64,000 nucleotides of DNA from Candidatus Woesearchaeota archaeon (GCA_014729675.1 WJJM01000039.1:1479-65478), one strand, 5' to 3'; positions 10,159 to 62,158 are shown, counted from the stretch's first letter. Notes: generated by a model not told the origin, from the sequence alone. A program made the numbers and translations.

Positions 10159-10352
10159 TAGGTCAACAAGTTGCCCTGCGATAATTATTCAAAAATAATA
10201 ATAATCCATAACGCTCGCTTTGCTCGATACTATAGCGCTGAGACAGAGGCGTTGAGTTCTGGCTTCGCTTAAGCGAATTGAGCACTCAGATTGGCTCGTA
10301 CTGAGACTGTGCACGAACAGCGAAGCTGTGAGTGCCATAGGTGGGATTGATT
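10159..10352 (+). repeat. Copy A of dispersed GC-rich structured element family (taggtcaaca...gataacgctcgctttgctcg...gagacagaggcgttgagttctgg...gagactgtgcacga...gtgagtgccata.gtgggattga)
   Basis: Conserved blocks shared with copies at 18070, 52965, 61990 and 41285(-); TATA-like tttaaaaaa about 12 nt upstream; internal hairpin ACAGCgaaGCTGT; intergenic after alaS. Confidence 0.6.
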
Positions 10353-10595
10353 TGTATTTTGATTAAGGAATATTTTCTAATAAAGTTATTTGCCATGGAT
10401 TGAGATCTTTAAAATCCTGATCGCAAGGCAGGCTTTAAAAAATATATCCAATCTGGCTTAGGGATAGGATCAATAATCTTTAATCTTTTATCAAGAAAAT
10501 CATGAACTAAGTTATTAAAATTTAAATATATCTTATTATCTTTATCTTTGCATCAAAACTAAATATTTTTAAAGCTGAGTGTTTTGCTTTTTATC

Positions 10596-11390
10596 ATGAG
10601 GGGGTTAACTATAGATCTAGAGGACTGGTTCCAGGTATATAATTTCAGCAGGATAATAAAACAGGAAGACTGGGGCAAGCAGAGAGAGAGGGTCATAAGG
10701 AACACTGACAGGCTGCTGGATGTTCTTGATGAATACGATACTAAAGCTACATTCTTTGTCCTTGGATGGATAGCTGAAAAATATCCTTTTCTTGTGAATG
10801 AGATCGCGACAAGAGGCCATGAGATAGGATGTCATGGTTACAGCCATAAGCCTGTATTTCTTATGAGCAAAGAAGAGTTTGAGCATGATCTTGAAAGATC
10901 TGTAAAAGCAATAAAAAAAGCATGCGGAGCAAGGCCAAAAGGATACAGGGCTCCAAGTTTTTCTATAACAAAAAAGACATTGTGGGCATTGGATGTCCTG
11001 AAGGAAAATGGATTTGAGTATGATTCTTCTATGATGCCCACTGACAAACATCCTGATTATGGGATAAAAGGAATTCCACGGAAACCATTTATGATAAAAG
11101 GCATAAAAGAGATTCCTTTGACAACAGTACATGGACTGCCTGTAGGTGGAGGATATTTCAGGGCATACCCTTATATCTTGACAAGGTATCTGATGAAAAA
11201 AGACAAGAATTCTATATTTTATATCCACCCATGGGAGTTTGATCCAAAGATTCCAAGATACAATCTTCCTTTGTTGAAAAGGTTCAGGCATTATGTTGGA
11301 CTGAAAAAAACGAGAAAGAAGTTCAGGAAACTATTGAGGGATTTTAGATTTGATAAGCTGGATAATATCATCAAAAAGGACTTCTCTTGA
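10596..11390 (+). CDS. Polysaccharide deacetylase (NodB-homology), exosortase/PEP-CTERM-locus-type subfamily-like
   Basis: N-terminal LTIDLEDWFQV motif and TFFVLGWIAEKYP...GHEIGCHGYSH NodB core. ORF track starts at TTG 10584; ATG at 10596 preferred. Confidence 0.65.
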   Translation: MRGLTIDLEDWFQVYNFSRIIKQEDWGKQRERVIRNTDRLLDVLDEYDTKATFFVLGWIAEKYPFLVNEIATRGHEIGCHGYSHKPVFLMSKEEFEHDLERSVKAIKKACGARPKGYRAPSFSITKKTLWALDVLKENGFEYDSSMMPTDKHPDYGIKGIPRKPFMIKGIKEIPLTTVHGLPVGGGYFRAYPYILTRYLMKKDKNSIFYIHPWEFDPKIPRYNLPLLKRFRHYVGLKKTRKKFRKLLRDFRFDKLDNIIKKDFS

Positions 11391-13053
11391 AATATCTTGT
11401 ATGCAAAAGTTTTTCTGACTTTTTAGACAAAGGTTTGCCTAAGAATTCTTCATATATCTGTTTTATCATAGGATTTTCATGAGATTTTCTTAAAGGCAAT
11501 CTTTTGTCTTCTTCATAGATTGCTTCTATTCTTTTCTTTATCTTTTCTTTTTCATAAGGCAAAGGCTGACCTCCTCCACTTATACAGCCTCCAGGGCATG
11601 CCATGATCTCTATGAAATCAAATTTATCTTTCTCTTTAAGAAGTTCTCTTGCGTTTTTCAGGCCATTTGCAACTGCAAACCTTATCTTTTTTCCGTCAAG
11701 ATCAACTTTCCCTGTCTTTATACCATCTAACCCTCTTGTCTCTTTAAAATCAACACTTTTAAGCTCTTTTCCTGTTGCCAGTTCATAAGCTGTCCTTAAT
11801 GCTGCTTCCATTACCCCTCCTGTTGCGCCGAATATAGCTGCAGCTCCTGTGGACATGCCAAGCACAGGGTCAAAATCTTCATCAGAAAGATTTTTGAAAT
11901 CAATGTTGAAGTGCTCTATAAGCCTTGCTGTCTCTCTTGTTGTCAGAACATAATCAACTCCTGACTTCAGTTCAGGACGGGTCGACTCAAACTTCTTTGC
12001 TGTACAGGGCATTATGGATACAACTATTATATCCTCCTTAGGAATGTTTGCCTTTTTAGCATAATATGTTTTTATAAGGCTGCCAAGCATCTCGTGAGGA
12101 GATTTGCATGATGACATGTTCTTGTTTTTTATGAGATCATGATAGAAATGTTCCATGAACTTTATCCAGGCAGGGCAGCAGGTTGTTATCATAGGAAATC
12201 CTTTATTTTCTTTTATCCTCTTCAGAAGTTCAGAGCCTTCTTCCATGATCGTAAGGTCAGCTCCGAAGTTTGTGTCAAAAACTTTGTCAAAACCGCATCT
12301 TCTTAATGCAGCAACCATCTTTCCTGTAACTAAAGTTCCAGGAGGAAGATCAAATTCCTCTCCTAATGATGCTCTTATAGATGGAGCAGTCTGGACAACA
12401 ACATGTTTCTTTTTGTCTTTAAGAACCTTCAAAACTTCCTGCAGATGCTCTCTTTCTGAGATGGCTCCTACAGGGCATGCAGCTATACACTGTCCGCATT
12501 TTATGCATGCTACATCATTTAAGTTCTTTTCAGAATAAGGAGTTACGTGTTCATGATGAGCTCTTTGTGCAAAGTCTATAGCCCATGTTGACTGTATCTT
12601 GTCGCATACAGCAACACATCTTCCGCAATTTATGCAAAGATTATCATCTCTTATTACAGAAGCTCCTAAGTCAACCTTATATTTCTTTTTTGGATCAAAT
12701 CTTACTTCTCTAATGCCCAGTTCATGGATCAGTCTGCAAAGATCATGATTCTTGTTTTCTCTGAAGCATTTATCCATATGTTCTGGCATGAGAAGCTCTG
12801 CATTTACTTTTCTTGCCCTTTTTACTTTCTCAGAGTTTGTCTTTATCTCCATACCTTCTTTTGGATATGAACTGCAGGATGTTATCAGTTTTCCATCTTT
12901 TGTCTCAACAATACATAACCTGCATCTTGCTTCTGGCTCAAGGTTTTCCTGATAGCATAATGTAGGGATATTTATTCCGTTATCTTTGCATACTTGAAGA
13001 ATAGTCTTTCCTTCTTCACATTCAATTTTTTTGTTGTTGATCTTTATATTCAT
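11371..13053 (-). CDS. hydA: [FeFe]-hydrogenase catalytic subunit (HydA/HndD-like) with N-terminal 2Fe-2S and 4Fe-4S ferredoxin domains
   Basis: H-cluster motifs L1 TTCCPAW, L2 MPCTAKKFE, L3 EIMACPGGCISGGGQP; CINCGRCVAVC and CIKCGQCIAACP ferredoxin motifs. Confidence 0.85.
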   Translation of the reverse strand: MNIKINNKKIECEEGKTILQVCKDNGINIPTLCYQENLEPEARCRLCIVETKDGKLITSCSSYPKEGMEIKTNSEKVKRARKVNAELLMPEHMDKCFRENKNHDLCRLIHELGIREVRFDPKKKYKVDLGASVIRDDNLCINCGRCVAVCDKIQSTWAIDFAQRAHHEHVTPYSEKNLNDVACIKCGQCIAACPVGAISEREHLQEVLKVLKDKKKHVVVQTAPSIRASLGEEFDLPPGTLVTGKMVAALRRCGFDKVFDTNFGADLTIMEEGSELLKRIKENKGFPMITTCCPAWIKFMEHFYHDLIKNKNMSSCKSPHEMLGSLIKTYYAKKANIPKEDIIVVSIMPCTAKKFESTRPELKSGVDYVLTTRETARLIEHFNIDFKNLSDEDFDPVLGMSTGAAAIFGATGGVMEAALRTAYELATGKELKSVDFKETRGLDGIKTGKVDLDGKKIRFAVANGLKNARELLKEKDKFDFIEIMACPGGCISGGGQPLPYEKEKIKKRIEAIYEEDKRLPLRKSHENPMIKQIYEEFLGKPLSKKSEKLLHTRYFKRSPF

Positions 13054-14192
13054 CTTGCTGTCCTTTTTCTTGTCTTCTTCTCTTTAACCCTTTCTTCAAA
13101 CTCACTTCTGAAATATTTTAGAGCATTGAGAAGGTGGTTTGTTGAGGTCTGGCCAAGGCCGCAGAAGGATGTCTCCTTTATGACTTCTGCAAGCTCTTTT
13201 AGAGTGTCAAGATCTTTCATGTCTGCATTTTTCATAGATATGTTTTCAAGTATGTTCAGGATACGATATGTGCCTTCTCTGCAGGGAGTGCATTTTCCGC
13301 AGGATTCAAACTCATAAAATTTGGCTATGTTTGTAACTAAATCTACTATCGATTGTTTTTCATCTACTGCTATTATAGTGCAGGAGCCAAGCATGCATTC
13401 TTTTCCGCAAATAGCATCTGGGTGAAGAGGGATGTCACAATGAGGGATACACCCTCCAAAGCATCCAAAGAACACTGCTTTTATAGGATTTTTTGGTCTT
13501 CCAAGCTTAATCAGATCACATAAAGGAGTTCCTAAAGGAAGTTCATATACTCCTGGTCTTGTAACATTTCCGGACAATGAATATAATCTTAAGTTCTTGT
13601 TCCAATCATCATAGAGCATAGCCAGAGGAACATTTGCTAAAGTTTCAACATTATTGATCACTGTTGGCTTGCTATATAATCCTCTTACTGTTGGAAAAGG
13701 AGGTTTTGTTCTTGCCTGTCCTCTTTTGCCCTCTATTGATTCCAGGATCGCGGTTTCATCTCCGCATATATATGCTCCTGCTCCGATAACTATCTCAATA
13801 GGTGTTTCTGATCCTGTCCTGTTTTTTATCTTAGTTATTGCTTTTTTTAGTTTTGATTCTAAATAGTCATATTCTCCTCTTAAGTAGATGAATGCTTTTT
13901 TTGCTTTGATTGCATAGGCTGCTATAAGGATGCCTTCTATAAGTGCTTCTGGATTTTTTTCTATTATAAATTTGTCTTTGAAAGTTCCTGGCTCTCCTTC
14001 GTCAGCATTGCAGATGAGATATTTTTCAGAATCCTTTTCTTTTGAGACCATCTCCCATTTTGACCCTGTTGGAAAGTTAGCCCCTCCTCTTCCTGAAAGG
14101 CCTTTTTTCTTTATCAGGTCTATAGTCGCTTTTGAACCTAGTTTTATTGCTTTTCTATATGCTCTTTGAAGAGGTTTTCTTAGTATCTGCAT
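13050..14192 (-). CDS. hydB: NuoF-like NAD(P)H-binding flavoprotein subunit of hydrogenase (HydB/HndC-like)
   Basis: GRGGANFPTGSKW FMN/NADH motif; ESCGKCTPCREG 4Fe-4S motif; 4-nt overlap with hydA. Confidence 0.8.
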   Translation of the reverse strand: MQILRKPLQRAYRKAIKLGSKATIDLIKKKGLSGRGGANFPTGSKWEMVSKEKDSEKYLICNADEGEPGTFKDKFIIEKNPEALIEGILIAAYAIKAKKAFIYLRGEYDYLESKLKKAITKIKNRTGSETPIEIVIGAGAYICGDETAILESIEGKRGQARTKPPFPTVRGLYSKPTVINNVETLANVPLAMLYDDWNKNLRLYSLSGNVTRPGVYELPLGTPLCDLIKLGRPKNPIKAVFFGCFGGCIPHCDIPLHPDAICGKECMLGSCTIIAVDEKQSIVDLVTNIAKFYEFESCGKCTPCREGTYRILNILENISMKNADMKDLDTLKELAEVIKETSFCGLGQTSTNHLLNALKYFRSEFEERVKEKKTRKRTAR

Positions 14193-14596: not shown

Positions 14597-14647
14597 TTTA
14601 CACCTCTTATTCTGATGGAGTGTTCTTTTGTTTAAATAGTTTTTTAT

Positions 14648-15274
14648 TTGATAATTGTAATGATGAATCATGATTTTAGAAAAATATTTAAACTGAACAA
14701 GTATCTTTTTATTATGTATGAATTTGAGAATGTAAAGAAGTTTTTTGACATTTCTGATTATAATTATAGTTCCATGTATAAATATATAGAATTGTTTATC
14801 TTTTCTGCTGCAGGATTTTTTATACCTTTTTTTATAGGGCATCCTCAAATAGTTGTGGGGATAATAGTGAACAGTTTTCTGATAAGTTCTTCATTAAAGT
14901 TTAAAGATTATAAGATATTGCCTGTAGTTGTGATGCCTTCATTGGGGGCTTTGTCAAGAGGGTTGTTGTTTGGGCCATATACTCCTTTTTTATTTTATAT
15001 GATTCCTTTTATTTGGATTGGAAATTATCTTTTAGTCTATGCTTTTAGGCAGTTTAAGCTTAAGAAGAAGCTTAATTATTGGCTTAGTCTTGGGATGGGT
15101 ATCGTTTTCAAGGCAGGATTCTTGTTTTTAACTGCTTACATATTCTATATTTTTGGAGTTGTTCCAGCTGTATTTTTGACTGCGATGGGAGTTATGCAGG
15201 CTATAACTGCTTTTGGAGGAGGAGTTGCTGCTTTTGGTTATGAGAAAATCAGCAGATGGGTCAATAGAAGTTAG
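14648..15274 (+). CDS. Integral membrane protein, hypothetical
   Basis: Multiple hydrophobic helices; no motif recognised. Confidence 0.35.
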   Translation: MIIVMMNHDFRKIFKLNKYLFIMYEFENVKKFFDISDYNYSSMYKYIELFIFSAAGFFIPFFIGHPQIVVGIIVNSFLISSSLKFKDYKILPVVVMPSLGALSRGLLFGPYTPFLFYMIPFIWIGNYLLVYAFRQFKLKKKLNYWLSLGMGIVFKAGFLFLTAYIFYIFGVVPAVFLTAMGVMQAITAFGGGVAAFGYEKISRWVNRS

Positions 15275-17960: not shown

Positions 17961-18069
17961 TCGTGTTTTTTAAAGATGAGGTTTTATTGACATTATATAG
18001 TTTAAAGTTTAATCTTTAAGTTATAAATTAGTCAGCTGCTTGTGATGATAGTTTAAAAATAATTATATT

Positions 18070-18292
18070 TAGGTCAACAAATTTGTTTTGTAGATTATTA
18101 AAAAGTTCAATCCTTACTGATAACGCTCACTGCGTTCGCTAACTCTACCTCTGAAACAGATGCGTTGAGTTCTAAATTATCTTAACTGGATGCTTCAGTT
18201 GATTAGAATCAAAGCCAGAAATCAGCTTAGCTGCGGAGAGAGACTGTGCACGACCATTGAAGTTGTGAGTGTCATCAATGAGATTGAAGGAT
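18070..18292 (+). repeat. Copy B of dispersed GC-rich structured element family
   Basis: taggtcaaca... gataacgctcac... gcgttgagttct... gagactgtgcacga... gtgagtg.cat... gattgaagg; TATA-like tttaaaaata about 10 nt upstream; 5-prime ttcaatcc and 3-prime ggattgaa-type ends complementary. Confidence 0.55.
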
Positions 18293-18425
18293 TTTAAACT
18301 TAAGAAAATAAATAATGTATCATATCTAGGATTGAATCTTAGTTTGCTTTTTGAGAATAATAAAAAATCCTGATCTTAAAGCAGACTTTCTCAAAAAACA
18401 ATATATGTCTTTAGATTTAAAATAT

Positions 18426-20303
18426 CTATTTTTTAAAGAAATCTTCTATCTTTTCTTTATACATGTTGGTTATCTGGGTGTTCCATTCTGAAGGAAAGTA
18501 TTTTCTGTAGGTGTTCCAGACATATCTTTCGTCAAGGAAGATTATCACTCCCCTGTCTTTTCCAGTACGGATACATCTTCCAGCTGACTGGAAGCATTTT
18601 GTCATCGCAGGGAATATGTATCCATATTCTGTCCCGTTCCTGAACTTGTCTTCATAATAATCTATCAGCTCTTTTGTCTCCAAGTCAGGCCTTTGCAGCG
18701 GCAGGCCTACGACTATGACAGCTTTTAGAAGATCTCCCGGCAGATCTATGCCTTCTGCAAAATTTGCCGAAGATACCCCAAGCAGGACAGCACCTGTCTT
18801 TTCATAGCTCTTGAACCTTTCCAGAAGATCCTGTTTTTCTTCTTTGCTTAGTCTTGGCTGTTCTGAAAATATAGTCTTTGTGCATATGTTCTTGAAGTAT
18901 TCATTTACTTCATCTCTTAACTTGTAGCTTGGGAAGAATACAGCAGAGTTTCCTGGAACTGAATTTATTGTCCTTGCAAGTATGGCTGCTATACGTTTAT
19001 ATTCTGAGACAGATCTTCTTGTGAATTTTGTTGTTGTGTGGGGGATTATCATAGAAAGCCTGTTTTCAGGAGGAAAAGGGGACGGATATTCTTTTTCTAA
19101 AGTCATATCTTTTGGAAATCCGAGAAGGTCTCTGTACATAGAAGTAGGAGATAATGTTCCTGACATGATAATCGTGGAGTGTGCATTCTGGATTATCTCT
19201 TTAGTCAAAAGAGAGGGATCAAGGCACCTGTAGGCAAGGATAATCTGCTTTTTACCACGGAACATCTTTTTTGTCAAGATTCTTGCAAATGACTTGTCTT
19301 CTCCAAGCCATGCTTCAAGAAATGAAGCGATGCCGCCCATAGATGATTTCTGCTGTTTTTTCTTTATCTCTTCGCTTATGAACTCAAAATGGGCAATAAG
19401 CTCATCATACTTTTCTATACTATTTATCTTATCCATGAACTCCTGTTTTTTTATTAGTTTTTCCTGCTCTGGAAAATTATCTTCAAATACAGCAAGCTCT
19501 TCAAGTGCATCTCTTATAGATTCAAGGTAGGATTCTGTGTCATTGTATTTGAATTTCCTTGCTTCCTTAATGGCTCTCTGGATCATGAATGTTGAGAGTT
19601 TGTCTGTCATCAGGTCTCTTATCCTTCTTGGAAGGTTGTGGCCTTCATCTATTATTACGATGCAGTCTTCGATAGATTTCTTTGTCTTGTTGAAGATGAG
19701 CTCCCTTATATGGGGGTTGAATATATAAGAATAATCAGAGATTATGACTTTTGCTTTCTCTGCTACCATAGCAGATATCTCATAAGCGCAGAGTTTCTCT
19801 TTTTCGCATTCTTTTACTATCTCTTCGCAATGGTAAGGTGTTTCAAGTTTTGAAAGAAAATACTCTGCCTGCACTGTCGGCTTGCCTGATTTTTTTCTTG
19901 TATTTGTATGATGTTCGCATTTGTTTTCCTCTTTTTGTGTCTTGCAGTATTCGTAAAACTCATTTGAGTAAAGTTCTCTCACACCAGGAACAGGGCACAT
20001 GCTTTGCTTTCCTATTAGGTCTGCTGTCCTGAAGTCAAGTTTGTGCTTTTGCTTCATAATCTTTAATGTTTCGATAGCTATCTGATGTTGTGTGTGCTTG
20101 GAAGTCAGGAAGAATATGGTCAGGTCCTTTTTCATAGCATAGAACAATGCAGGAGCAAGAGCTGCTGCTGTCTTGCCTAATCCGGTAGGTGCATGCGCGA
20201 CAAGGTTCTTTTTGTCTTTGATGCAGTCATGTATATCCTGCACAAGCTGGGTTTGCTTGTCTCTTATCTTTGAATGAGGAAAAAATATCTCTTCGGCGTT
20301 CAT
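18426..20303 (-). CDS. xpd: XPD/Rad3-family DNA helicase with 4Fe-4S domain
   Basis: APTGLGKT Walker A; DEGHNL DEAH box; four-Cys FeS insert (CPVPG...C...C...C). ORF track extends to 20531; internal ATG (20303, alt 20321) fits the XPD N-terminus better. Confidence 0.8.
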   Translation of the reverse strand: MNAEEIFFPHSKIRDKQTQLVQDIHDCIKDKKNLVAHAPTGLGKTAAALAPALFYAMKKDLTIFFLTSKHTQHQIAIETLKIMKQKHKLDFRTADLIGKQSMCPVPGVRELYSNEFYEYCKTQKEENKCEHHTNTRKKSGKPTVQAEYFLSKLETPYHCEEIVKECEKEKLCAYEISAMVAEKAKVIISDYSYIFNPHIRELIFNKTKKSIEDCIVIIDEGHNLPRRIRDLMTDKLSTFMIQRAIKEARKFKYNDTESYLESIRDALEELAVFEDNFPEQEKLIKKQEFMDKINSIEKYDELIAHFEFISEEIKKKQQKSSMGGIASFLEAWLGEDKSFARILTKKMFRGKKQIILAYRCLDPSLLTKEIIQNAHSTIIMSGTLSPTSMYRDLLGFPKDMTLEKEYPSPFPPENRLSMIIPHTTTKFTRRSVSEYKRIAAILARTINSVPGNSAVFFPSYKLRDEVNEYFKNICTKTIFSEQPRLSKEEKQDLLERFKSYEKTGAVLLGVSSANFAEGIDLPGDLLKAVIVVGLPLQRPDLETKELIDYYEDKFRNGTEYGYIFPAMTKCFQSAGRCIRTGKDRGVIIFLDERYVWNTYRKYFPSEWNTQITNMYKEKIEDFFKK

Positions 20304-22989: not shown

Positions 22990-23499
22990 ATTTCCACCTT
23001 ATATTTTTTTTCAGGAGAATAAAGAATTTTTGCTTTATCTCCAGCGTAATCCAGCTTGCACCAGATCACCTCTTGATATTATCAGTTATTTTTGTCTGGT
23101 TTAAAAAGGTTGCTGTTTTTGAGTTGATCTTTGTGATTTACAATTTAATTTGATTATTGTCTGTTGGAGCAAAAATAATTTTAGCTTAAGATTTAATCAT
23201 TATCAATCATTGGTTTGTCGGACACTTTTACAATGACGTTAAGCAGACAAACGTAAAGAAACTTTCGGTTGATAACAATGTCTTTGCATAACAGATAGAT
23301 TTATATGTTTCGGTGTTTTTTATCTTGTTATGGCAGAAAAAGATTTTGTTGAGATGATGCTGAAGAAGGCAAAAGAGAAAAAAGAGACTGAGGCACAGGA
23401 CAGGACAGGGAATACTGGCCACAGGGAGATAGAAGATCTCGTTGAGTCAATAAGAGAATGGAAGCAGAAGAAAAAAGAGTGATTCCAATCAAAACAAAG

Positions 23500-23625
23500 A
23501 AAATAGCCCTGCTGTTTGAACCTGAGGGTTAACACCCTACAGCTACCTGTTGTGGGTTTCGCAGGTGAAAAGTTAGATTCGCTTCGCTCATCTAGAAACC
23601 TGCTCAAGCCCACCAAACAAAGATA
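23500..23625 (-). repeat. tRNA-Gln-flanking conserved element, copy 1 (about 125 nt, immediately 3-prime of tRNA-Gln(TTG) on the minus strand)
   Basis: 97% identical to 24653..24776; proximal end mimics the tRNA T-arm/acceptor 3-prime half (GGTTCAAACAGCAGGGCT vs GGTTCAAATCCGGGCAGGGCT). Confidence 0.55.
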
Positions 23626-23646
23626 ATAAATAAAGAATAAACAAAT

Positions 23647-23740
23647 AGCCCTGCCCGGATTTGAACCGAGGTCCCAGGACCCAAAATCCTGGATGATTGG
23701 CCATTGTGCACAGCTTAAAGCTGTTCTACACTACAGGGCT
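23647..23740 (-). tRNA. tRNA-Gln (anticodon TTG) with a noncanonical 21-nt intron in the D-loop
   Basis: Manual fold: acceptor AGCCCTG/CAGGGCT, anticodon stem CAGGA/TCCTG with loop TTTTGGG, T-arm CTCGG-TTCAAAT-CCGGG. Relative to the paralog at 24794, AACAGCTTTAAGCTGTGCACA is inserted after GTGTAG. Confidence 0.6.
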
Positions 23741-24643: not shown

Positions 24644-24652
24644 GAAAAAAAT

Positions 24653-24776
24653 AAAATAGCCCTGCTGTTTGAACCTGAGGGTTAACACCCTACAGATACC
24701 TGTTGTGGGTTTCGCAGGTGAAAAGTTAGATTCGCTTCGCTCATCTAGAAACCTGCTCAAGCCCACTAAACAAAGA
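24653..24776 (-). repeat. tRNA-Gln-flanking conserved element, copy 2
   Basis: Near-identical to 23500..23625; lies 3-prime of tRNA-Gln(CTG). Confidence 0.55.
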
Positions 24777-24793
24777 CAAAGAATAAAGAAAAT

Positions 24794-24891
24794 AGCTCCG
24801 GGCAGATTTGAACTGCCGTCCACGGATTTCACTTTTGAGCTGGGGGCTCAAAACCAGAGTCCGCGATGATTGGCCACTACACTACGGAGCT
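24794..24891 (-). tRNA. tRNA-Gln (anticodon CTG) with about 26-nt intron at the canonical 37/38 position
   Basis: Acceptor AGCTCCG/CGGAGCT; anticodon stem GCGGA/TCCGT; loop CTCTGG + intron hairpin TTTTGAGC-CCCCA-GCTCAAAA; T-arm GGCAG-TTCAAAT-CTGCC. Confidence 0.6.
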
Positions 24892-38286: not shown

Positions 38287-39018
38287 TTATTGCCACTGTT
38301 TTAAGGCATCTTCTTCTACAAAATGCAGATTTCCAGGTATTATTAAACATTGCGGTGTATGCTTTAGTTCTATGTCTTTTATTTGTTCTGCTGTCCTTGC
38401 TATTATCTCTTTTTTTTCTGAGCCTAATGCTGAACATGCAATACATAATTGATCTTCTTTTAATCCTAATTTTAGAAGTCTTTGTATAGCTTCTTTAATT
38501 GTCAGGAATCTGTTGTTTATAGGATTCAGGTCTAATAAAAACAATGTATGCAGGCCTATGCTCTGATTTTTCTTAAAAAAATCATAGAAGCTGTTAGCTT
38601 TTTCATCAAAAGGGATAGAAACAGTCCTTCCGAACTTGTAGAGCTCTAATCCCATGATTCCTATAGCATTTAATATGGATGTGTTGTTTATTACTTTAGT
38701 TTCTATCTTTAGTTCTTTTGCTCTTAGCATAAGATCTGTATGTGTTGTCGCTCCAAATGGGTCTCCTATCACAAGGAAAGCTGTATCTTGTGTTTTTGCA
38801 TCTTTAAGTATGGTCGATTCTGCCTGTTTTTCAACCATGTCCCTGTCTGCCAATATTATATCTTTACCGTAAAGTTTTTCCAGAGATTCTTTAGAACATT
38901 GAAGTTTTGAAGTGTAGGATTCTAGATAGATCTTATTGCAGGATTTGATCGCTTCTAATCCTTTTAATGTAATGTCTTTTTCATTGTTTAATCCTAGTCC
39001 TATGAAATATAATGTCAT
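38287..39018 (-). CDS. dphB: Diphthine synthase (tetrapyrrole-methylase fold)
   Basis: MTLYFIGLGL...DITLKGLEAIKSCNKIYLE N-terminus and overall 243-aa size typical of Dph5/DphB. Confidence 0.8.
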   Translation of the reverse strand: MTLYFIGLGLNNEKDITLKGLEAIKSCNKIYLESYTSKLQCSKESLEKLYGKDIILADRDMVEKQAESTILKDAKTQDTAFLVIGDPFGATTHTDLMLRAKELKIETKVINNTSILNAIGIMGLELYKFGRTVSIPFDEKANSFYDFFKKNQSIGLHTLFLLDLNPINNRFLTIKEAIQRLLKLGLKEDQLCIACSALGSEKKEIIARTAEQIKDIELKHTPQCLIIPGNLHFVEEDALKQWQ

Positions 39019-39828
39019 GGGTTAAGTTAGGAGATGGAGTTTTTAAAGGTTGCTGATTGACTTATATAATACAGATTTAGTATACATTTTAGCGACCAAT
39101 TTTTTTGTAGTGTTCAAAAAGTTATGTTTTAAACGAATAATGCTTAAAAAGCCTCCTTACATTTATAGGAGAATGGAAGAACATAAGGTTTTTATTTCAA
39201 ATAAGCTTCAAAAAAGGCTATCTGATTAGGATTATGTCAATAAGATTGCAAAAAAGCTGAAAAAGAACCTTATCAAGGAGATTCAGTTTATAAGAGATTT
39301 TTGAGGGAAAATAGATTTGAAGGGAGAAGAATTTACTGGCATATATATATAAGAATTTTTGATGGTTTTGATTGTGGGAGAGTCTGGAAAAAAGATTAAC
39401 AGGCCACAATAGATGAAATTAAAAAATTACTGCATGTATTTATGGAAGAAGCAGAAAAAATACATAAGAATTTTTAAGCAATTCTTTTAATATTTCCAGC
39501 CTTTAAATCAGCTAGAGAATCTGCTATCTGTTTCAATAAATCATCGTCTATTTTTTCTTTTGCTTTCAGCTCTTTATACTCTTTTTCAGAAATACAGATT
39601 TGTTTTTTTTCATTATAAAGCAACCTCAATAAATTATAAATTTTTATACCTTATAAAGATTTCTATTTTGTAGTTTAATTCTACTAAAATTTCTCAACAA
39701 TTCCCCTCTTTTTTGAATAATTAAAATTAGAATTATCATCAAAAAGTTTATTTAACATGTATAATGCAGAATAGAAATATTTATATATGAGTTTTAATAT
39801 TTAAAATAATATTGATTAAAGTCGGTTT

Positions 39829-39900
39829 TTTGGCGGAAACCGAGTTTATATGGCGTGTGTGTTTAAAATTTGGCGATTTCAAACACAAAATGTTTGGCGT
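39829..39900. promoter_or_regulatory. Four TGGCG boxes at about 20-bp spacing in the 1-kb AT-rich region upstream of ftsZ
   Basis: tTGGCGgaaac / aTGGCGtgtgt / tTGGCGatttc / tTGGCGtttt at 39831, 39851, 39871, 39895. Confidence 0.3.
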
Positions 39901-40005
39901 TTTCTCAAGAGGTAGTAAGATAAACCTATATATAAATGTTTATTTACTCAGAAGTATATTTTCGAGTATATAAATTAAAAAAATAAAAAAAGGGGGAATG
40001 AAAAA

Positions 40006-41076
40006 ATGGATTTTGTCGTGGAAAATGCTGTAAAAAATGCAGCTGAACAAAACGTAGGAGATACAAACGTAGGTCAGGCCAATATAAAGGTTATTGGTGT
40101 TGGCGGAGCTGGTAACAATATGGTTGGCTGGCTATACAACAAAGGTATTAAAGGAGCTGAAATATTAGCGGTTAATACAGATCAACAACATCTGGATATT
40201 ACTGATTCTGACAGTAAATTTCTGCTGGGAAGAGAGGTGACAAGAGGCTTAGGCTGTGGAGGATATCCTCAAAAAGGAACTGAAGCAGCTCAAGAAAGCC
40301 TTAATGAGCTGAAGGAATCCCTGAAGGATTCTGATATGGTATTTGTCTGTGCTGGAATGGGCGGAGGAACAGGTACAGGTGCTGCTCCAGTGGCTGCACA
40401 GGTAGCTAAAGATGCAGGTTCAATTGTTATCGGAACTGTAACTATGCCTTTTAACATAGAAAGAGCAAGAGTGGATAAGGCTGAATTCGGACTACAGCAG
40501 TTAAGACAGATATCTGATACAGTTATCGTAATTGATAACAACAGATTAGTCAATATTGCAGGAAACCTGCCAATACAGCAAGCATTTGCTGTCGCTAATG
40601 AGCTTATCAGTACAATGATCAAGGGAATCGTAGAGACAATCGCCGTCCCTTCATTAGTCAACCTGGATTATGCAGATGTAAAGGCTATCATGACTAATGG
40701 CGGAGTTGCTGCTATCGGCGTAGGCTCAAGTGATACAAATAACAAGGTAGAAGAAGCTGTTAAAGGCGCTCTAAGCAATCCTTTATTGGATATAAGCTAT
40801 GAAGGTGCTACAGGCGCTCTGATACATGTTTGCGGCGGACCTGATATGACACTGGAAGAAATCTCCAAAGTAGGAGAACTGGTCACTGAATCCTTGGATG
40901 ACGATGCAAATGTTATCTGGGGAGCTAGAGTTTCAGAGGACATGAAAGGGAAGCTTACAGTTATGACCATTGTGACAGGAGTAAACAGCCCATGGATACT
41001 TGGAAAAGTAGACCATAAGAACCCTAGTCCACAGGCAAAACAGATGAGTGAAGAGCTTGGAATAGAGATAGTATAG
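40006..41076 (+). CDS. ftsZ: Cell division GTPase FtsZ (tubulin/FtsZ family)
   Basis: GVGGAGNN and GMGGGTGTGAAPV tubulin-signature GTP-binding motifs; GGGGGA SD. Confidence 0.8.
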   Translation: MDFVVENAVKNAAEQNVGDTNVGQANIKVIGVGGAGNNMVGWLYNKGIKGAEILAVNTDQQHLDITDSDSKFLLGREVTRGLGCGGYPQKGTEAAQESLNELKESLKDSDMVFVCAGMGGGTGTGAAPVAAQVAKDAGSIVIGTVTMPFNIERARVDKAEFGLQQLRQISDTVIVIDNNRLVNIAGNLPIQQAFAVANELISTMIKGIVETIAVPSLVNLDYADVKAIMTNGGVAAIGVGSSDTNNKVEEAVKGALSNPLLDISYEGATGALIHVCGGPDMTLEEISKVGELVTESLDDDANVIWGARVSEDMKGKLTVMTIVTGVNSPWILGKVDHKNPSPQAKQMSEELGIEIV

Positions 41077-41117
41077 ATATAATCTATACTTTTTAATTTT
41101 CTTTTTTAGGGATTTCT

Positions 41118-41165
41118 TGCCTTCATTTTAACTCCCTAACCACCCCCAAACCCAAATGAAGGCAA
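41118..41165 (+). terminator. Perfect 12-bp inverted repeat (ttgccttcattt / aaatgaaggcaa) with 24-nt loop downstream of ftsZ, followed by T-run
   Basis: Seen directly; a T7 run follows about 30 nt later. Confidence 0.35.
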
Positions 41166-41284
41166 ATACTTGGTCTCTTCCTGCTCTGCAGGGGGAGATT
41201 TTTTTATTTTATTCATTAGATGATTCTATATTGTTTTGAAAATCTCTAAATTCTAAGATTTAATATTCCTAAAAATCAAAAAAG

Positions 41285-41400
41285 ATTTCAATCCTATCGA
41301 TGGCACTTACAAGCTTCGCTTGTTCGTGCACAGCCTCAATACGATATAAGCTGAGTTCTGGCTCTGTTGTAGAAATAAGAGCTCTCTGTGACATTAGCAT
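41285..41400 (-). repeat. Copy E (minus orientation, 5-prime-shortened) of dispersed GC-rich element family
   Basis: rc reads ...agccagaactcagc..ggctgtgcacgaacaagcgaagcttgtaagtgccatcgataggattgaaatc; closest to copy D. Confidence 0.5.
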
Positions 41401-46938: not shown

Positions 46939-47044
46939 CGCTCCCTCAGGGATTTGAACCCTGGTTTTAGCCTTATTGCAAATGAGCATCTTTAGAATGC
47001 AGTTACCGCAAGGCTACGTACTATCCAGGCTATACTAAGGGAGC
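46939..47044 (-). tRNA. Intron-containing tRNA (about 32-nt intron in anticodon loop); anticodon most likely GCG (Arg), GAT (Ile) not excluded
   Basis: Acceptor GCTCCCT/AGGGAGC, D-arm GTAT..GTAC with A20, anticodon stem TAGCC/GGCTA enclosing 39 nt, T-arm CAGGG-TTCAAAT-CCCTG, discriminator G. Confidence 0.55.
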
Positions 47045-50985: not shown

Positions 50986-52557
50986 TTAAACTTTCAAACC
51001 TTTCTGGCCTTTTCTTTTCAATGGGGAAGCTATCTCTACTTTCTGGCCAACCTGTTCTTTTATCTTGATGGCTGTCTTTTTTCCTACTATCTGTGAGAGC
51101 TTTAGCGGGTCTGATCTCTTGACATCTCTTATGGTCTTTATCCTGTTGCTGAAGAGTTTTCTTGCCCTTACCCTGCCTATGCCTTTAAGCTTTAATAAAG
51201 GAAGCAGTTCTTCTTTTGCTCCGTGCTTGAGCCTAAGCCTTAGCTTTGTGAGTTCTTTTAGGATGTCTTTCTTTTTTATCATCCTTGCAAATTCTGTTGA
51301 GCAGTAGAAAAGCCAGTCAGCAAGGTTAAGCTTTATCCTTGTCTCTCCAGGCCTTATCGAGTATTTTTCAAGGATGGCCTCTTCATCTATCTCGTTTATC
51401 CAGTCTTTGAAGAACAATGCTGTCTTTACAGAGTTAAGGAACTCCACATATTCTTCGTCATACATAGAAGGTTCTTCCTGGAGCATAGAATCAGAATATT
51501 TTACAAGAGCTTCTTCTATATCCTCGTATTCTTTTTTCCTTACTCTTAATAGAGGCCTCATCTCTAAGGTTGAGGCGATCATCTGCAGGAAGGAAAGCTC
51601 TGAGATCTCTTTTTTTTCAGATGCTTTTAATGCCTGGATAATATGGTTGGCTGTGTAAGGATCTATATATAGTTCTGCAACCCTTTTCCCTATTGGCGTA
51701 GCTTTGTATTCATGGTTGAACATGTCTGCTGCTGACTGGAACTCATTTTCCTCTTCAGTCGAGGTTATGAATCTATAGTCTTTCAACAGTTTCAGCATCT
51801 TTTCTATGATTGAAGTTAGTTTAGTCATGTCCTTGTACTGGAATGCCCAGAATGTTTTTGAGAAAAAATCTATTATCTGTTTCTTGTCCTTTACAAATCC
51901 TGCTGCTATCAGTGAAAGAAGATAGGTTCTTAAGACAGGCTCGACTGCAAGTTTGGAGTATACTTCTTCCGGCTCTCCTTTTACATATCTTTCATAAATC
52001 TCATCTTTTATAGGCTCAGTTGAAGCTATGGCTATAGCCTGGCCTGTTATGTCATATTTCGGGCGGCCAGCGCGGCCAGCCATCTGAAGATATTCCAATG
52101 TAGGGATCCAATCAAGACCTCTGTGTCCGAATCTTCTTAGGTCTTTCATTATTGCTCTATAGGCCGGCAAGTCGAGGCCAAAACTAAGTGTCGGCGTGGC
52201 ACAGATAGTTTTTATCAACCCTTTCCTGAAGCTGTCTTCTATAATCTCTTTCTGCTTATGGACAAGGCCTGCATGATGAAAAGCTATTCCTTTTTTTAGG
52301 CAGAAAGCAAGACGTTTGCACTGCTTTGTAGGTGTTGATAATGTGTTTAATGCCTTTTCTGAAAGCTCTTCATATTCTTTTGTTTCTTTTTCTGACAATG
52401 ATCTTTGTTTTCCTATTGCTTTTGCTATATCTTCTGCTGTCTTCTCTGCTGAGCGTTTTGTGTTTGCAAATACAATAGCCTGTTTTAGCTTGTTTATCGT
52501 GTCAAGAACTAAGTCTATTGTCTGGTCTCCTGTCTCTGAAGCTATTGTCTCATGCAT
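50986..52557 (-). pseudogene. Hel308/Ski2-like DNA helicase lacking the N-terminal RecA1 (Walker A/DEAD) domain: truncated gene or split gene
   Basis: Begins at RecA2 domain (TPTLSFGLDLPAYRAIM...QMAGRAGRPKYD motif VI), then winged-helix, ratchet and HhH (LKGIGRVRARKL). Upstream in-frame sequence hits a stop after about 40 non-helicase codons; region upstream is the 47-bp tandem array. Confidence 0.5.
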
Positions 52558-52706
52558 ATCTGTTGAGAAAGAGAGAAGGTATTTAAAATTGTTTATTATT
52601 GGCTGTTTGATTAGTATGTTGATATCTAACCTGCTTTTGGTTATTTTTAAGTCAGGAAATTTTTTGTATAGAATAATTCAATCTTAGTCTCTAAGTCAGG
52701 AAAACC

Positions 52707-52847
52707 TGCCCTGCGATCAGGATTTTCAATCCTAATCTTTAGGTCAACATAGTTGCCCTGCGATCAGGATTTTCAATCCTAATCTTTAGGTCAACATAGT
52801 TGCCCTGCGATCAGGATTTTCAATCCTAATCTTTAGGTCAACATAGT
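52707..52847 (+). repeat. Perfect tandem array, 3 x 47 bp (tgccctgcgatcaggattttcaatcctaatctttaggtcaacatagt), representing the 5-prime module of the dispersed element family
   Basis: Seen directly; unit contains taggtcaaca.agttgccctgcgat shared with copy A 5-prime end; a partial fourth unit precedes. Confidence 0.8.
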
Positions 52848-52964
52848 ACATGTGATAACATTTTAAAATAAAATTCAATATTTTTCTTCTAAGTCAGCAT
52901 AGCTACATTGCAATTATTATTACCAATTAAAGTTTTCATATGTAATAATCTAAAAATCCCTATC

Positions 52965-53142
52965 GATAACGCTCGCTTTGCTCGCTAACCTTACCACTGA
53001 GACAGAGGCGTTAAGTTCTGGTTTAGATTAAAAGGACTGAGCACTCGACTTAAATCGGAGAGAGACTGTGCACGAGCAGGTTTCCAGACGAGTGAAACGA
53101 GTCTGACTTTTCACCTACGAGTGCCACAAATGGGATTGAAAG
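52965..53142 (+). repeat. Copy C core of dispersed GC-rich structured element family
   Basis: gataacgctcgctttgctcg...gagacagaggcgttaagttctgg...gagactgtgcacga...hairpin CAGAC-11nt-GTCTG...gagtgccacaaatgggattgaaag. Confidence 0.6.
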
Positions 53143-53269
53143 TTCTAATTCTGCTTTTTATCAAAAAATAAAATATGCCAAAAATAATTTACTATGGGCA
53201 GGATTTCAATAATAGATTAAAGCCTGACTTAGAAATAGAATTAAAAACTTTTAAAATCAAGATAAAAAA

Positions 53270-55522: not shown

Positions 55523-55545
55523 TTTAAAATTAAAAAAATAAAAAA

Positions 55546-57124: not shown

Positions 57125-57211
57125 CGCCCCGAGCAAGACTCGAACTTGCGACCTTGCGGTTTCAGCTTTTGGCTTAACAGCCGCACGCTCTACCTGCTAA
57201 GCTATCGGGGC
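57125..57211 (-). tRNA. tRNA-Asn (anticodon GTT) with about 14-nt intron after position 37
   Basis: Acceptor GCCCCGA/TCGGGGC, D-arm GCTT-AGCAGGTA-GAGC, anticodon stem TGCGG/CCGCA, loop CTGTTA(A), T-arm GCAAG-TTCGAGT-CTTGC, discriminator G. Confidence 0.6.
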
Positions 57212-58553: not shown

Positions 58554-58629
58554 ACAGATTTAAATACCGATACAACAATTATAAAGAATGGGAAAATTTA
58601 ACCTTTATTCGAGATTTGAAGGAAGATAC

Positions 58630-59193: not shown

Positions 59194-59722
59194 TGTTGAG
59201 AATAAGGAAAAGTATGTTGAATACTATTATAAGATACATGAAAACAGGCATGCCTGTGAAGAAGACAAAGAAGATGAGTACTGCGTCTCCCCAGACAGGA
59301 AGGTTCTTGTTGATCCGGAGATTTTTCTTATCTATAATATAGGCAAACAACGGACTGATGATGACAGTGAAAAGTGTTGCAAGGGCAAGGCTGTAGCTGA
59401 AAAAGCTGTTATATGCAAGTATGATATAGCCTGCTCTTCTTAAGATATAATCTGAGCTTTTGTCAATGATGTTTCCGAATCCTGTTACATTGTCTGTCTT
59501 TCTTGCTATCATCCCGTCAAGCCCGTCAAAGAAGTGGTCTATGATAAGGGCGGTCCCTGCAAGTATCAGCTGGTTTTTGAAGAGGAAGTATAATGAGGCA
59601 AGCTTGAATATGAGAGAGATGAGCGTGGCTCTTATAGGAGTAAGGCCTACACTGTAGAGGGCTTCAGCCAGTTTTTTGCTGTCAAGTATTCTTGCTTTTT
59701 TTCTTAAATAAGGGATTATCAT
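59159..59722 (-). CDS. CDP-alcohol phosphatidyltransferase family protein (paralog 2)
   Basis: DHFFDGLDGMIARKT...GNIIDKSSD motif. Confidence 0.65.
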   Translation of the reverse strand: MIIPYLRKKARILDSKKLAEALYSVGLTPIRATLISLIFKLASLYFLFKNQLILAGTALIIDHFFDGLDGMIARKTDNVTGFGNIIDKSSDYILRRAGYIILAYNSFFSYSLALATLFTVIISPLFAYIIDKKNLRINKNLPVWGDAVLIFFVFFTGMPVFMYLIIVFNILFLILNITSVFYYRRKT

Positions 59723-60894
59723 CTTAATGACCTGTATACTGAAAGAAGCTTTTTTGATGTGTTTTCTATAGAATGCGGCTTTACGTTCTTTTCTGCATTT
59801 TCTGACATTTTTCTCATCAGATCTTTGTCATCAAGAAGCTTTACTGCCTCTTTGCTGAACCTGTCTATAGATTCCGGCACTAAGATCCCGTCTTTGTTAT
59901 GGACAATCGTGTCTACAGATCCAGGCGCTTTTACTGCAATTGTGGGAAGGCCTGCTGCTTTTGCCTCAAGAAAGATTATGCCCTGGGTCTCTGTCTTTGA
60001 TGCAAAGACAAAAAGGTCTGCAGCAGCATAATAAGAAGGGATATCTTTATGAGGAACAGAGCCTGCAAGCATTACATTTTTCTTAAGGCTGTTCTTTTCT
60101 ATGAATTCTTTTACTTTTTCTTCCTCAGGACCGCAGCCGGCTATCAGGAGTTTTGTATCCGGAAGAGACTTGATCATCTTTTTGAAGGATTTTAGAAGGA
60201 AGAATATATTTTTTTCCAGGCCTATCCTGCCTACATAAAGAAGAAGATTCTCATCTTCTTTTACATTGTACTTTTTCCTTATCTTGTTTTTTTCCAGGCC
60301 TTGGAATTTTTTAATATCTATCCCTGTAGGGATTATTTCTATCCTTGTTTTTACCTTGTTCTTTAGGAGATATTTTTTTATAGATTCAGTAGGAGCTATC
60401 ACGCAGTCACATTTGCTGCAGTAATGCAGGCTTAGCTTTTTTGCTATGATAGAGGTTATGTCCTGATCAAAAGGAAGGTAATGGGCGTATTTTTCATATT
60501 GGGTGTGATATGTGAATACAAGGGGGATGTTGTATTTCTTTGCAAAATATTTTGCTGCATTTCCTATGATCCATGGATGGTGGGAATGGATTATGTCAAG
60601 ATCTAGTTTTTTTATTATCCCGGGAATCCTGTTGGACAGAACAGGGAAGGTAAGGCTCTTTATAGGATTGAATTCAGAATCTATCGATATATCAATTGAC
60701 TTATACCTATGTATCTTTTCTTCTTTTCTCTTCTTTTCTGCAGTGTAATAATGAGGTGCAAATATATGGACTTCCTGATCAAGAGCTTCAAGGCCTCTTT
60801 TGAATGAGTCTACGCTTACGACAACTCCGGTAAGTACAGGCCTGTAGGTGTTTGTGAACATTCCTATTTTCATATTGGGATGCTGTTTTTTCAT
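59719..60894 (-). CDS. Glycosyltransferase family 4 (GT-B fold)
   Basis: C-terminal ...SKTETQGIIFLEAKAAGLPTIAVKAPGSVDTIVHNKDGILV (E-x7-E region); 4-nt overlap with upstream paralog 2. Confidence 0.75.
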   Translation of the reverse strand: MKKQHPNMKIGMFTNTYRPVLTGVVVSVDSFKRGLEALDQEVHIFAPHYYTAEKKRKEEKIHRYKSIDISIDSEFNPIKSLTFPVLSNRIPGIIKKLDLDIIHSHHPWIIGNAAKYFAKKYNIPLVFTYHTQYEKYAHYLPFDQDITSIIAKKLSLHYCSKCDCVIAPTESIKKYLLKNKVKTRIEIIPTGIDIKKFQGLEKNKIRKKYNVKEDENLLLYVGRIGLEKNIFFLLKSFKKMIKSLPDTKLLIAGCGPEEEKVKEFIEKNSLKKNVMLAGSVPHKDIPSYYAAADLFVFASKTETQGIIFLEAKAAGLPTIAVKAPGSVDTIVHNKDGILVPESIDRFSKEAVKLLDDKDLMRKMSENAEKNVKPHSIENTSKKLLSVYRSLR

Positions 60895-60961
60895 GTTTAA
60901 TAAGTTTTCTTTTTGTTTCTAATCCAAAAATATTTAAACAGGTTTTGGCTGTTGTTTTTGT

Positions 60962-61447
60962 ATGGTGAATATTCCCAACCTGCTGACTGCCTTGAGGATT
61001 GCTTTTGCTCCTTTGGTACTTTACTTTATCCTTATCTCAAGGCAGTATCTTGCATCTGTCTTGTTTGTGGCAATTGTTCTTAGTGATGCTTTTGACGGCT
61101 ATATAGCCAGAAAATATAATCAAGGTTCCAGAGTAGGCAAGATACTTGATCCCATTTCAGACAAGCTGCTTTATGTTTTTGTTCTTTTAGGGGTACTCAT
61201 CAGGGAAAAGTATTTTTTATGGCTCTGGTTTTTTGGGATATTATCTTTAATGTTTATCGTAGGATATACTATCATATTAAGAAAAGGGATAAAATTTCCT
61301 ACAAGGCTTGGAAGAATATGCAATCTTGCAGAGGTCATACTTCTTGCACTGATGATACTTTCTGTCAATAAAGTTATTCTTGTGCTTTTTTCTTCTTTTA
61401 TACTTGTTTCAGCATTTAGCTATGCTTACACACTGATAAAGAAATAG
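60962..61447 (+). CDS. CDP-alcohol phosphatidyltransferase family protein (paralog 3)
   Basis: MVNIPNLLTALRIAFAPL N-terminus and DAFDGYIARKYNQGSRVGKILDPISD motif. Confidence 0.7.
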   Translation: MVNIPNLLTALRIAFAPLVLYFILISRQYLASVLFVAIVLSDAFDGYIARKYNQGSRVGKILDPISDKLLYVFVLLGVLIREKYFLWLWFFGILSLMFIVGYTIILRKGIKFPTRLGRICNLAEVILLALMILSVNKVILVLFSSFILVSAFSYAYTLIKK

Positions 61448-61866
61448 ACAAACAACGAGGATATTATTCCTATTATCGCTCCTACTAATACTTCCAGAGG
61501 CGTATGGCCGAGAGCATATTGCCTTTCAGGAATCTTAAGTTTTACAGACCTTATTATCCTGTTTATTGTTTTTCCTTCTTCTCCTGCTGTCCTTCTTACT
61601 CCCATAGCATCCCTTATGACTATAAGTGCAAGGACCAATGACAGGACAGAGAGATCTGTGATCCCTTCAGTGAGGAAGAGTATCAATACAAGTGAGACAA
61701 CAACTGAAGAATGAGAGCTTGGCATGCCTCCTGTGAGGAAGATGTCTTTTAGATGGACCTTTTGCTCTTTCTTTATTATCATAAGATGCATCTTTGCAAA
61801 TTGTGCAAGAGCCCAGGCTATAAATACAGAAAGAAATACCTTGTTAGCCAGGAGTTCTGCTATCAT
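61426..61866 (-). CDS. DUF212 / acid-phosphatase-vanadium-haloperoxidase-related membrane protein
   Basis: GGMPSSHSSVVVSL signature; 4 TM helices. Confidence 0.5.
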   Translation of the reverse strand: MIAELLANKVFLSVFIAWALAQFAKMHLMIIKKEQKVHLKDIFLTGGMPSSHSSVVVSLVLILFLTEGITDLSVLSLVLALIVIRDAMGVRRTAGEEGKTINRIIRSVKLKIPERQYALGHTPLEVLVGAIIGIISSLFVYFFISV

Positions 61867-61989
61867 GCTATATGTTTCTTTTTTGTCTTTTAATTATTTT
61901 GCTGACTATCAGATGATGGTTACAGATTGTTTGTTTAATTTTAAGGTAGGGGTTTCGATGATTCAACTTATTTTATTTGCATTACAAAA

Positions 61990-62158
61990 ATGATTCAATC
62001 TTAACCTATAAGCGGAAATTTTTCAAATTTCCGCAATATAGCGCGGAAGCAGAGCCGTAGAGTCTAAATAAGTTATCAAGCCAGAGCTAAACTTAAATCG
62101 TACTGGGGCTGTGCGCGAGCAGATGAAGCCTACGAGTGCCATAGATAGGATTGAAAGG
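61990..62158 (+). repeat. Copy D of dispersed GC-rich element family (5-prime block divergent)
   Basis: ...agccagagct..aaatcgtactggggctgtgcgcgagcag...cgagtgccatagataggattgaaagg; strong upstream hairpin GCGGAAATTT-TTCA-AATTTCCGC. Confidence 0.5.

Follow-up and report, generated by a model that had tools for sequence, protein, structure and literature searches.

What are the GC-rich, non-coding elements scattered between the genes of a woesearchaeal genome: a family of small RNA genes, or a mobile repeat? The question is raised by a 64-kb stretch of Candidatus Woesearchaeota archaeon (GCA_014729675.1, WJJM01000039.1:1479-65478; 64,000 nucleotides (nt), hereafter the window), in which five copies of such an element were described, A, B, C and D on the plus strand and E on the minus strand. 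The original prediction left both readings standing, a multi-copy small RNA gene family and a structured element resembling a miniature inverted-repeat transposable element (MITE). Comparison with a sister genome has strengthened the mobile-element reading and weakened that of an RNA gene family. We consider it probable, though far from certain, that the family is a lineage-specific, non-autonomous composite repeat of the MITE type with a BOX-like modular build, which has spread and decayed within one narrow lineage of Woesearchaeota. It behaves as a mobile element because its copies have been gained, lost and degraded at orthologous sites, because truncated and nested copies occur, because the composites have inverted arms and modular tandem flanks and because the family is restricted to so narrow a lineage.

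The repeat family and its sites in a sister genome

All five copies are present where they had been placed, and all are intergenic. A signature taken from the shared 3' block (CTGTGCRCGA, 14-44 nt, AGTGYCA, 7 nt, GATTGA; written CTGTGCRCGAN{14,44}AGTGYCANNNNNNNGATTGA) matches the window at exactly these five copies, where 100 shuffles gave an expectation of 0. Both an nhmmer profile search and a covariance model of the 3' domain (R1), run with filters off, return the same five and none further. The density is about 78 copies per Mb, and repeats occupy about 3% of the stretch. The cores were said to be about 50% GC in a genome of about 33%; the first figure holds at the top of the measured range of 42-50% and fails at its lower end, and the second is replaced by a measured 36.8% for the window. 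Overall identity between copies within one genome is only about 50-55%, and the invariant part across copies is the 3' block CTGTGC.CGA-hairpin-AGTG.CA-N7-GATTGA. Ordered blocks had been attributed to all five copies, which is correct for this 3' block but not for the first two blocks quoted; these are shared by A, B and C and loosely by D, and copy E is without the 5' half.

Homologs exist beyond the window, but in one sister metagenome-assembled genome (MAG) only. In a scan of about 185,000 species genomes, GCA_964464955.1 was the only one to yield true relatives with the signature, at three loci; this MAG holds four copies in total, and nine copies are thus known in all. The signature had no match in the metagenomes of the Joint Genome Institute (JGI) or in IMG/VR, BLAST against phages and plasmids had none either, and patterns of the 5' and 3' units described below gave only chance matches in coding sequence in metagenome and viral scans. 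Seven more distant Woesearchaeota loci, totalling about 48 kb and carrying an alanyl-tRNA synthetase (AlaRS) about 80% identical, contain 0 copies according to R1 with filters off. The sister is a close one: the C-terminal open reading frame (ORF) of its Hel308-type helicase is 89% identical to that of the source genome, its XPD, helix-turn-helix (HTH) protein and DNA ligase share 90% clusters with those of the window, and its contigs are syntenic with the window, with gene order shared. Its loci (L001, L002, L004, L057, L058 and L059; CAYXHN01...) are titled 'uncultured Methanosarcinales archaeon'. This label is probably wrong, because the contigs are syntenic with a Woesearchaeota window and their proteins are 89% to over 90% identical.

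Presence and absence at orthologous loci had been proposed as evidence of mobility, and such differences are what the two genomes display. At the site of copy B, the distance from the XPD stop to the NTase start is 39 nt in the sister (L058) and 465 nt in the window; the extra DNA, about 17977-18425, is copy B. Both genomes retain the TATA box of the NTase. The PKD-helicase spacer that houses copy C measures 360 nt in the sister and holds no element. For copy E the corresponding place is the HTH-FtsZ spacer, in which the sister retains only a relic (AGAGGGCTCT..CCAGAA..TGCGCG) from which the hairpin and the GGATTGAA end have been lost. The ninth copy is found only in the sister, beside the DUF763 neighbourhood, exactly where its gene order departs from that of the window; at positions 14648-15274 the window has the deacetylase-hydrogenase block, and positions 6269-7550 of L058 hold the element followed by a Na/Ca exchanger. 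The coincidence suggests that the repeats mark rearrangement points.

As a separate observation, the sister locus orthologous to the site of copy C (L057, 7600-7900) contains two direct repeats of about 120 nt with TTTTCAATTCC and AGATAGGAT. These score zero against the element profile and could be an unrelated repeat or a very old remnant.

Architecture of the composite and structure of its core

The elements first described are the cores of larger composites. Those of the window measure 0.3-0.6 kb and have one to five 5' units; a full composite spans 0.3-0.7 kb and consists, in order, of an outer arm, 5' units, the GC-rich core, partial 3' duplicates and an inverted outer arm. The 5' unit is about 47 nt long and stands upstream of the core in one to six copies; it is a near-perfect palindrome made of two inverted arms of about 21 nt, AATCCTAATCTTTAGGTCAAC and GTTGCCCTGCGATCAGGATT. 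Single units fold with z-scores of -3.9 and -4.6, and the array reaches -5.4 and -9.2 on the two strands. Within the window these units occur only alongside cores, and none was found without one. Both the 'taggtcaaca' and the 'ttcaatcc' of the 5' end belong to the 47-nt unit, so that taggtcaaca cannot be kept as a transcript start preceded at 10-15 nt by a TATA-like box; a TATA box at that distance would in any event be too close to the start for an archaeal promoter.

Downstream, the last 22-24 nt of the core (GAGTGCCATnnATAGGATTGAA) are found again one to three times, at a period of about 55 nt. The repeats are separated by AT-rich stretches with tttaggaatattaaag, which are homologous to one another and between loci (85-96% identical in both comparisons). 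With 5' units in one to six copies and 3' units in one to four, the element is a composite with a tandem module of variable number. The outer end of every composite is formed by an inverted copy of the unit arm, and imperfect, weakly conserved outer inverted arms were found in A, B, C and D. An inverted pair of 8-10 nt, TTCAATCC/GGATTGAA, brackets the core itself. Two core subtypes, GGCUGUGC and GACUGUGC, are both present in both genomes, and individual copies are mosaics of subfamilies; L58, for example, joins L1-type and L2-type sequence, and shares spacer 1 with copy B.

Copy A extends over 10146..10473 (plus strand; its core scores 87.7 bits with R1) and comprises a 5' arm that contains taggtcaaca..gttgccctgcgat (10159-10182), the core (about 10203-10352), a partial repeat of the core's 3' end (tgccatggattgag, 10391-10404), an inverted copy of the unit (10411-10432) and the terminal arm ctggcttagggataggatcaa (10453-10473). 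Copy B (18011..18417, plus strand) lies between imperfect outer inverted repeats, AATCTTTAAG at 18011-18020 and CTTTAGATT at 18409-18417, and has its core at 18105-18290, a second 3' repeat at 18324-18338 and a unit-like arm at 18366-18386. Copy C (52677..53246, plus strand; core 52954-53142) opens with an array of five 5' units (52677-52900), which includes three tandem copies of the 47-nt unit (3.0 periods) at 100% identity (52707-52847), and closes with the terminal inverted arm ctgacttagaaatagaattaaaa (53224-53246). Copy D (61930..62243, plus strand) has an outer inverted repeat at 61930-61949 and 62170-62189, 5' units at 61960-62003, a core at 61993-62157 with a 10-bp 5' hairpin at 62012-62034, a second 3' repeat at 62200-62220 and a terminal arm at 62226-62243.

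Two copies bear signs of decay and nesting. Copy E (41233..41400, minus strand) is truncated at its 5' end and begins directly after the stop codon of the HTH gene (41422); its intact 3' domain (41287-41366) has the best R1 score of all, 91.5 bits, and gives way to an AT-rich tail with tttaggaatattaaa. In copy C, an insertion of 43 nt is nested in the apical loop of the 3' hairpin (53074..53116, plus strand; 30 nt more than in copy A), which is about 86% identical to 23563-23605 and to 24716-24758.

The sequences matched by this insertion belong to a different, GC-rich repeat of 146 nt, present on the minus strand at 23492-23637 and 24645-24790 in copies about 95% identical and lying directly downstream of two tRNA genes. 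It folds as a stem-GA-stem-GAA-stem-GA-stem hairpin, the same design as the 3' hairpin of the element, and its 3' end mimics the T-arm and the acceptor 3' strand of tRNA-Gln (23646-23715). It has no Rfam match of its own, a permissive search having returned tRNAs only.

The cores in the window are 115-190 nt long, the core of a full copy being 150-260 nt, and the last 50 nt hold a hairpin built as stem, tandem G-A, stem and GAA. In copy A (10307..10338, plus strand) an outer stem UG(U)GCAC/GUGCCA is followed by tandem GA..GA, an inner stem ACAGC/GCUGU and a GAA loop, and homologous hairpins fall within 18244-18275 (B), 53066-53127 (C), 62109-62142 (D) and, on the minus strand, 41300-41333 (E). 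The inner stem changes from ACAGC/GCUGU to ACAAGC/GCUUGU, GCGAA/UUCGC or GCAG(G)/CCUAC, and the loop is usually GAA. Across the nine copies this hairpin of 10-11 bp has 93.6% of its cells paired and 4 pairs changed on both sides, and covariation as high as that observed arose in 0 of 500 shuffles. Compensatory variation, as originally proposed, is therefore real, but the example drawn from copy C (CAGAC/GTCTG) sits in a C-specific 30-nt insertion; the stem that corresponds in C is GCAGG/CCTAC.

The nine sequences support no further helix, and the helices in the middle of the core are inconsistent between copies. The complementarity of the ttcaatcc and ggattgaa termini reads as an inverted repeat. 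The pairing shows no covariation, and a 5' ttcaatcc is not general; B and D alone have it at the 5' edge of their core, in C it is confined to the upstream units, in A it is degenerate and from E it is absent. Folding z-scores of the cores are modest, -1.1 to -4.8, and alike on both strands, for which reason strand assignment by folding energy was dropped.

The absence of an ORF also stands, in that none is conserved. Every copy does have short minus-strand ORFs that start at ATGGCACTC and reach a stop after 17-57 codons, and because neither their frame nor their length is conserved between copies we regard the elements as non-coding. Nor does a known RNA class match, as far as Rfam 15 is concerned: over the whole window at gathering score it returned only intron-containing tRNAs, and permissive searches gave nothing meaningful at E up to 10 for copies A and C or up to 5 for the longer relative L2. 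Several familiar structures were considered and rejected. Inspection of the copies by eye revealed no pseudouridylation pocket and no C/D boxes, as H/ACA and C/D RNAs would have, no 3-nt bulge beside the G-A pairs that would make a K-turn, and no bulge-helix-bulge at the terminal helix. An integron attC site was set aside, as the GGTCAAC/GTTGCCC pair is just 3 nt apart and no integrase is present, and so was a tRNA-derived short interspersed nuclear element (SINE), the T-loop likeness of TTCAATCC being too weak.

Mobile repeat, functional RNA or binding site

If the family is a non-autonomous mobile repeat, its copies would be moved in trans by an enzyme encoded elsewhere, which would recognise the arm repeats, the conserved hairpin, or both, as single- or double-stranded DNA. 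The blocks conserved in copies otherwise about 50% identical would then be cis-acting sequences that each successful copy must keep, and the number of units would be altered by slippage or unequal exchange. Read-through or transcription of its own might yield a tightly folded RNA that may affect neighbouring genes, although this would not be why the family exists.

A number of observations weigh against this interpretation. Pfam searches found no transposase, TnpB, IscB, Cas protein, reverse transcriptase (RT) or integrase in the 64-kb window, and transposase, TnpB, integrase and RT are equally missing from about 51 kb of sister loci. An 11-nt direct repeat, TTTTTTAAAGA, flanks copy B (plus strand, left 17966..17976, overlapping the NTase TATA box on the other strand, and right 18429-18439) and could be a target-site duplication; it partly pre-exists, however, at both positions of the empty site in the sister and is therefore not a clean one. 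Around the remaining copies AT-rich flanks obscure any such duplication, and exact termini are not fixed. The empty site could in principle reflect a precise deletion in the sister instead. The best-conserved blocks are internal, 100-250 nt from the ends, and the outer arms are poorly kept, which is the reverse of a classical DDE-type MITE, and an identity of about 50-55% between copies points to an age unusual for a MITE burst and has the look of purifying selection acting on the core. Finally, the two hairpin pairs changed on one side only remain compatible with G-U pairing on the plus strand, that strand folds more stably in 8/8 copies tested, and T-runs follow the core 0-25 nt after GGATTGAA, all of which fits a transcribed RNA.

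These last features are also those expected if the copies are paralogous, independently transcribed genes for trans-acting, structured small RNAs of about 150-260 nt. Each such gene would be driven by a promoter of its own, placed in the AT-rich or unit flank, and would end at an oligo-T terminator, and the copies would have multiplied by ordinary duplication; the 3' hairpin would be a protein-binding module, the variable segments would provide specificity, and the palindromic flanks would act as insulators or terminators. To the signs of transcription can be added the conserved blocks common to otherwise diverged copies of two genomes, the covariation of the 3' hairpin, AT-rich TATA-like stretches 22-34 nt upstream of a conserved ATAA(G/C) in B, C, D, L2 and L4, and the recurrence of the stem-GA-stem-GAA design in the tRNA-adjacent repeat of the same genome. 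Genes of this kind should nevertheless be retained, and between genomes with about 90% protein identity these are not kept at orthologous sites, those of B and C carrying no element and that of E being decayed. Copy E is without the entire 5' half, support for a helix is confined to the 3' hairpin, with no covariation in the terminal pairing, the folding z-scores are modest and equal on both strands, Rfam offers no match, and the element is absent from the seven related Woesearchaeota loci. On balance we hold this account, with all its parts taken jointly, to be unlikely, though it is the main rival. A related thought is that the core represents a new class of functional RNA, one on which the element depends in order to spread, with the palindromic flanks as integration scars. 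Such an RNA could serve RNA-mediated mobility as a template, guide or ribozyme, or it could be the RNA subunit of a ribonucleoprotein in DPANN archaea, and it would account for a covarying, G-U tolerant hairpin and for internal blocks that are kept while the outer repeats are poorly conserved; we judge it decidedly improbable.

The remaining readings turn on the flanks or on the minus strand. Clusters of protein-binding sites in DNA (palindromic operators, insulators or origin-like repeats) might control the genes beside them and leave the core as a by-product. This would explain why the flank units are long tandem palindromes, why the conserved blocks hold the 6-bp palindromes GTGCAC, AGCGCT and CCATGG, and why, in B, C and D, the array of units is turned towards the start of the gene next to it. 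Yet the class and orientation of the neighbouring genes are inconsistent, the site of B works in the sister without an element and with the same TATA box, covariation of a stem together with length changes is unexpected of a double-stranded binding site, and five origins per 64 kb are implausible; the chance that this is correct seems slight. Slighter again is that of orphan guide-RNA loci, in which the core would be a scaffold resembling an omega-RNA or tracrRNA, followed by a mini repeat-spacer array derived from its own 3' end, and would serve a TnpB, IscB or Cas12-like nuclease or transposase, or a Cas6-type processing enzyme, encoded elsewhere. The scaffold is conserved beside more variable flanks, the end of the core is repeated downstream at the period of about 55 nt, and its final ..GGGATTGAAAG presumably resembles the 3' end of archaeal type I-B CRISPR repeats, a likeness we take as a lead only. 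The stretches in question are not CRISPR spacers, however, because they are homologous to one another and between loci and genomes, position by position, and they match nothing else in the sequences compared. The surroundings of all nine copies are free of tnpB, iscB and cas genes, neither HEARO nor any other Rfam family matches, and the window contains no CRISPR array. The guide-RNA reading is thus largely refuted by spacer homology, the sequence after the scaffold being conserved and an effector gene lacking, and a CRISPR array proper is rejected on the same homology and on the absence of cas genes from the Pfam results. Least credible, to the point of being negligible, are genes for small proteins on the minus strand, which would begin at the conserved ATGGCACTC and have their TATA-like box within the AT-rich spacer. 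An ATG (GTG in C) is followed by GCA CTC in all copies and also in the partial 3' repeats, and TTTAATAT stands upstream of TTCAATCC, 22 nt apart in L2. The frame of A, B, C, L2 and L4 differs, however, from that of D, E and L1, because the length of the hairpin is either 14 or 16 nt, and the peptides, stopped after 17 to 57 codons, are unrelated beyond their nucleotide identity; the frame shifts between copies refute these genes.

As matters stand, the chief outcome is that a candidate new RNA class is removed and filed as a new repeat family. DPANN genomes are tiny and tightly packed, as the 39 nt between the XPD stop and the next start in the sister illustrate, and yet about 3% of the 64 kb consists of dynamic repeats that mark insertion polymorphisms and a break in synteny; selfish repeats therefore shape even reduced genomes. 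Repeats of this kind can break assemblies and bins, and the family provides a sensitive marker for strain typing and contig linking in this lineage. Should the core act as an RNA, it would be a rare case of a mobile structured RNA in archaea.

Genomic surroundings and comparison with known repeat systems

Every sizeable ORF in the window is a housekeeping gene, and the orientation of the copies relative to their neighbours is not consistent. The genes include those for AlaRS, FeFe-hydrogenase subunits, XPD, FtsZ, DNA ligase, purine genes, a type IV pilus or secretion ATPase and surface proteins. The AlaRS adjoining copy A has its next best homologue outside the source genome at only 82% identity. 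It is only 586 aa long (8353-10113), and the Hel308-type helicase is represented by a C-terminal ORF of 523 aa alone (50986-52557, minus strand). Across hundreds of Woesearchaeota homologues an AlaRS of 586 aa and a Hel308 C-terminal ORF of 517-523 aa are the rule; the two look like genes split or shortened throughout the lineage and not like local damage. Truncation of either by the element was ruled out, the lengths being the same throughout Woesearchaeota.

Three intron-bearing tRNA genes lie on the minus strand, at 46939-47044 (intron of 35 nt), 57125-57211 (15 nt) and 24793-24891 (29 nt). The last was found only with permissive Rfam settings, and ARAGORN miscalls or misses these intron-containing tRNAs. 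Just 3' of ftsZ (41086-41200) are GC-rich inverted repeats such as TTGCCTTCATTT/AAATGAAGGCAA, kept nearly base for base in the sister (L059, 3865-3975), which may represent a terminator or a small RNA that has nothing to do with the repeat family. Between the methylase gene and ftsZ an AT-rich stretch of 988 nt (39018-40006) has no ORF of at least 80 aa and no Rfam match.

Set beside known systems, the element recalls CRISPR repeats, omega-RNAs and tracrRNAs in that a structured scaffold is followed by GAGTGCCATnnATAGGATTGAA(A/T), repeated at a period of about 55 nt, and the end of this repeat presumably resembles the 8-nt handle region of archaeal type I-B and type III repeats ending in ..ATTGAAAG, again no more than a lead. 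It is unlike them in that the intervening sequences are homologous and cas, tnpB and iscB do not lie nearby. REP, REPIN and BIME sequences are, to our knowledge, not known from archaea. The 47-nt unit, an inverted doublet of arms of about 21 nt that makes a long hairpin and is arranged in tandem clusters, is like those of bacteria (PMC3116915). Unlike REPINs, which carry no large internal core, the units here never occur in the window without one, and no RAYT or Y1 transposase gene was found in the window or in the roughly 51 kb of sister loci.

With MITEs the family shares small size, the lack of coding sequence, inverted ends, a folded structure, multiple copies, filled and empty sites, and truncated and nested copies. 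One woesearchaeal genome is among the most MITE-dense of archaeal genomes, with 105 per Mb (PMC11602168), and the roughly 78 per Mb found here is of the same order; the comparison with the MITE families of that study is one of general description and density only. The differences are the lack of a clear target-site duplication, the absence from view of a cognate insertion sequence or transposase, weak outer repeats and a conservation that is internal.

The BOX element of Streptococcus pneumoniae belongs to another domain of life, and across domains sequence homology to boxA, boxB or boxC is not expected. The likeness is by described architecture only, and there are differences within it: the tandem module is central in BOX but lies here at the flanks, around a large, conserved GC-rich core, and the woesearchaeal copies are far more diverged. 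BOX elements combine folded structures and tandem internal modules in a composite repeat of the form boxA - boxB(n) - boxC (PMC3049150), and like them the woesearchaeal element is non-coding, intergenic, dispersed and modular. In both, a tandem module is present in variable number (45 nt in BOX, 47 nt here), the terminal modules are complementary and would fold tightly if transcribed, the content of copies differs between relatives, and the mobilising enzyme is uncertain.

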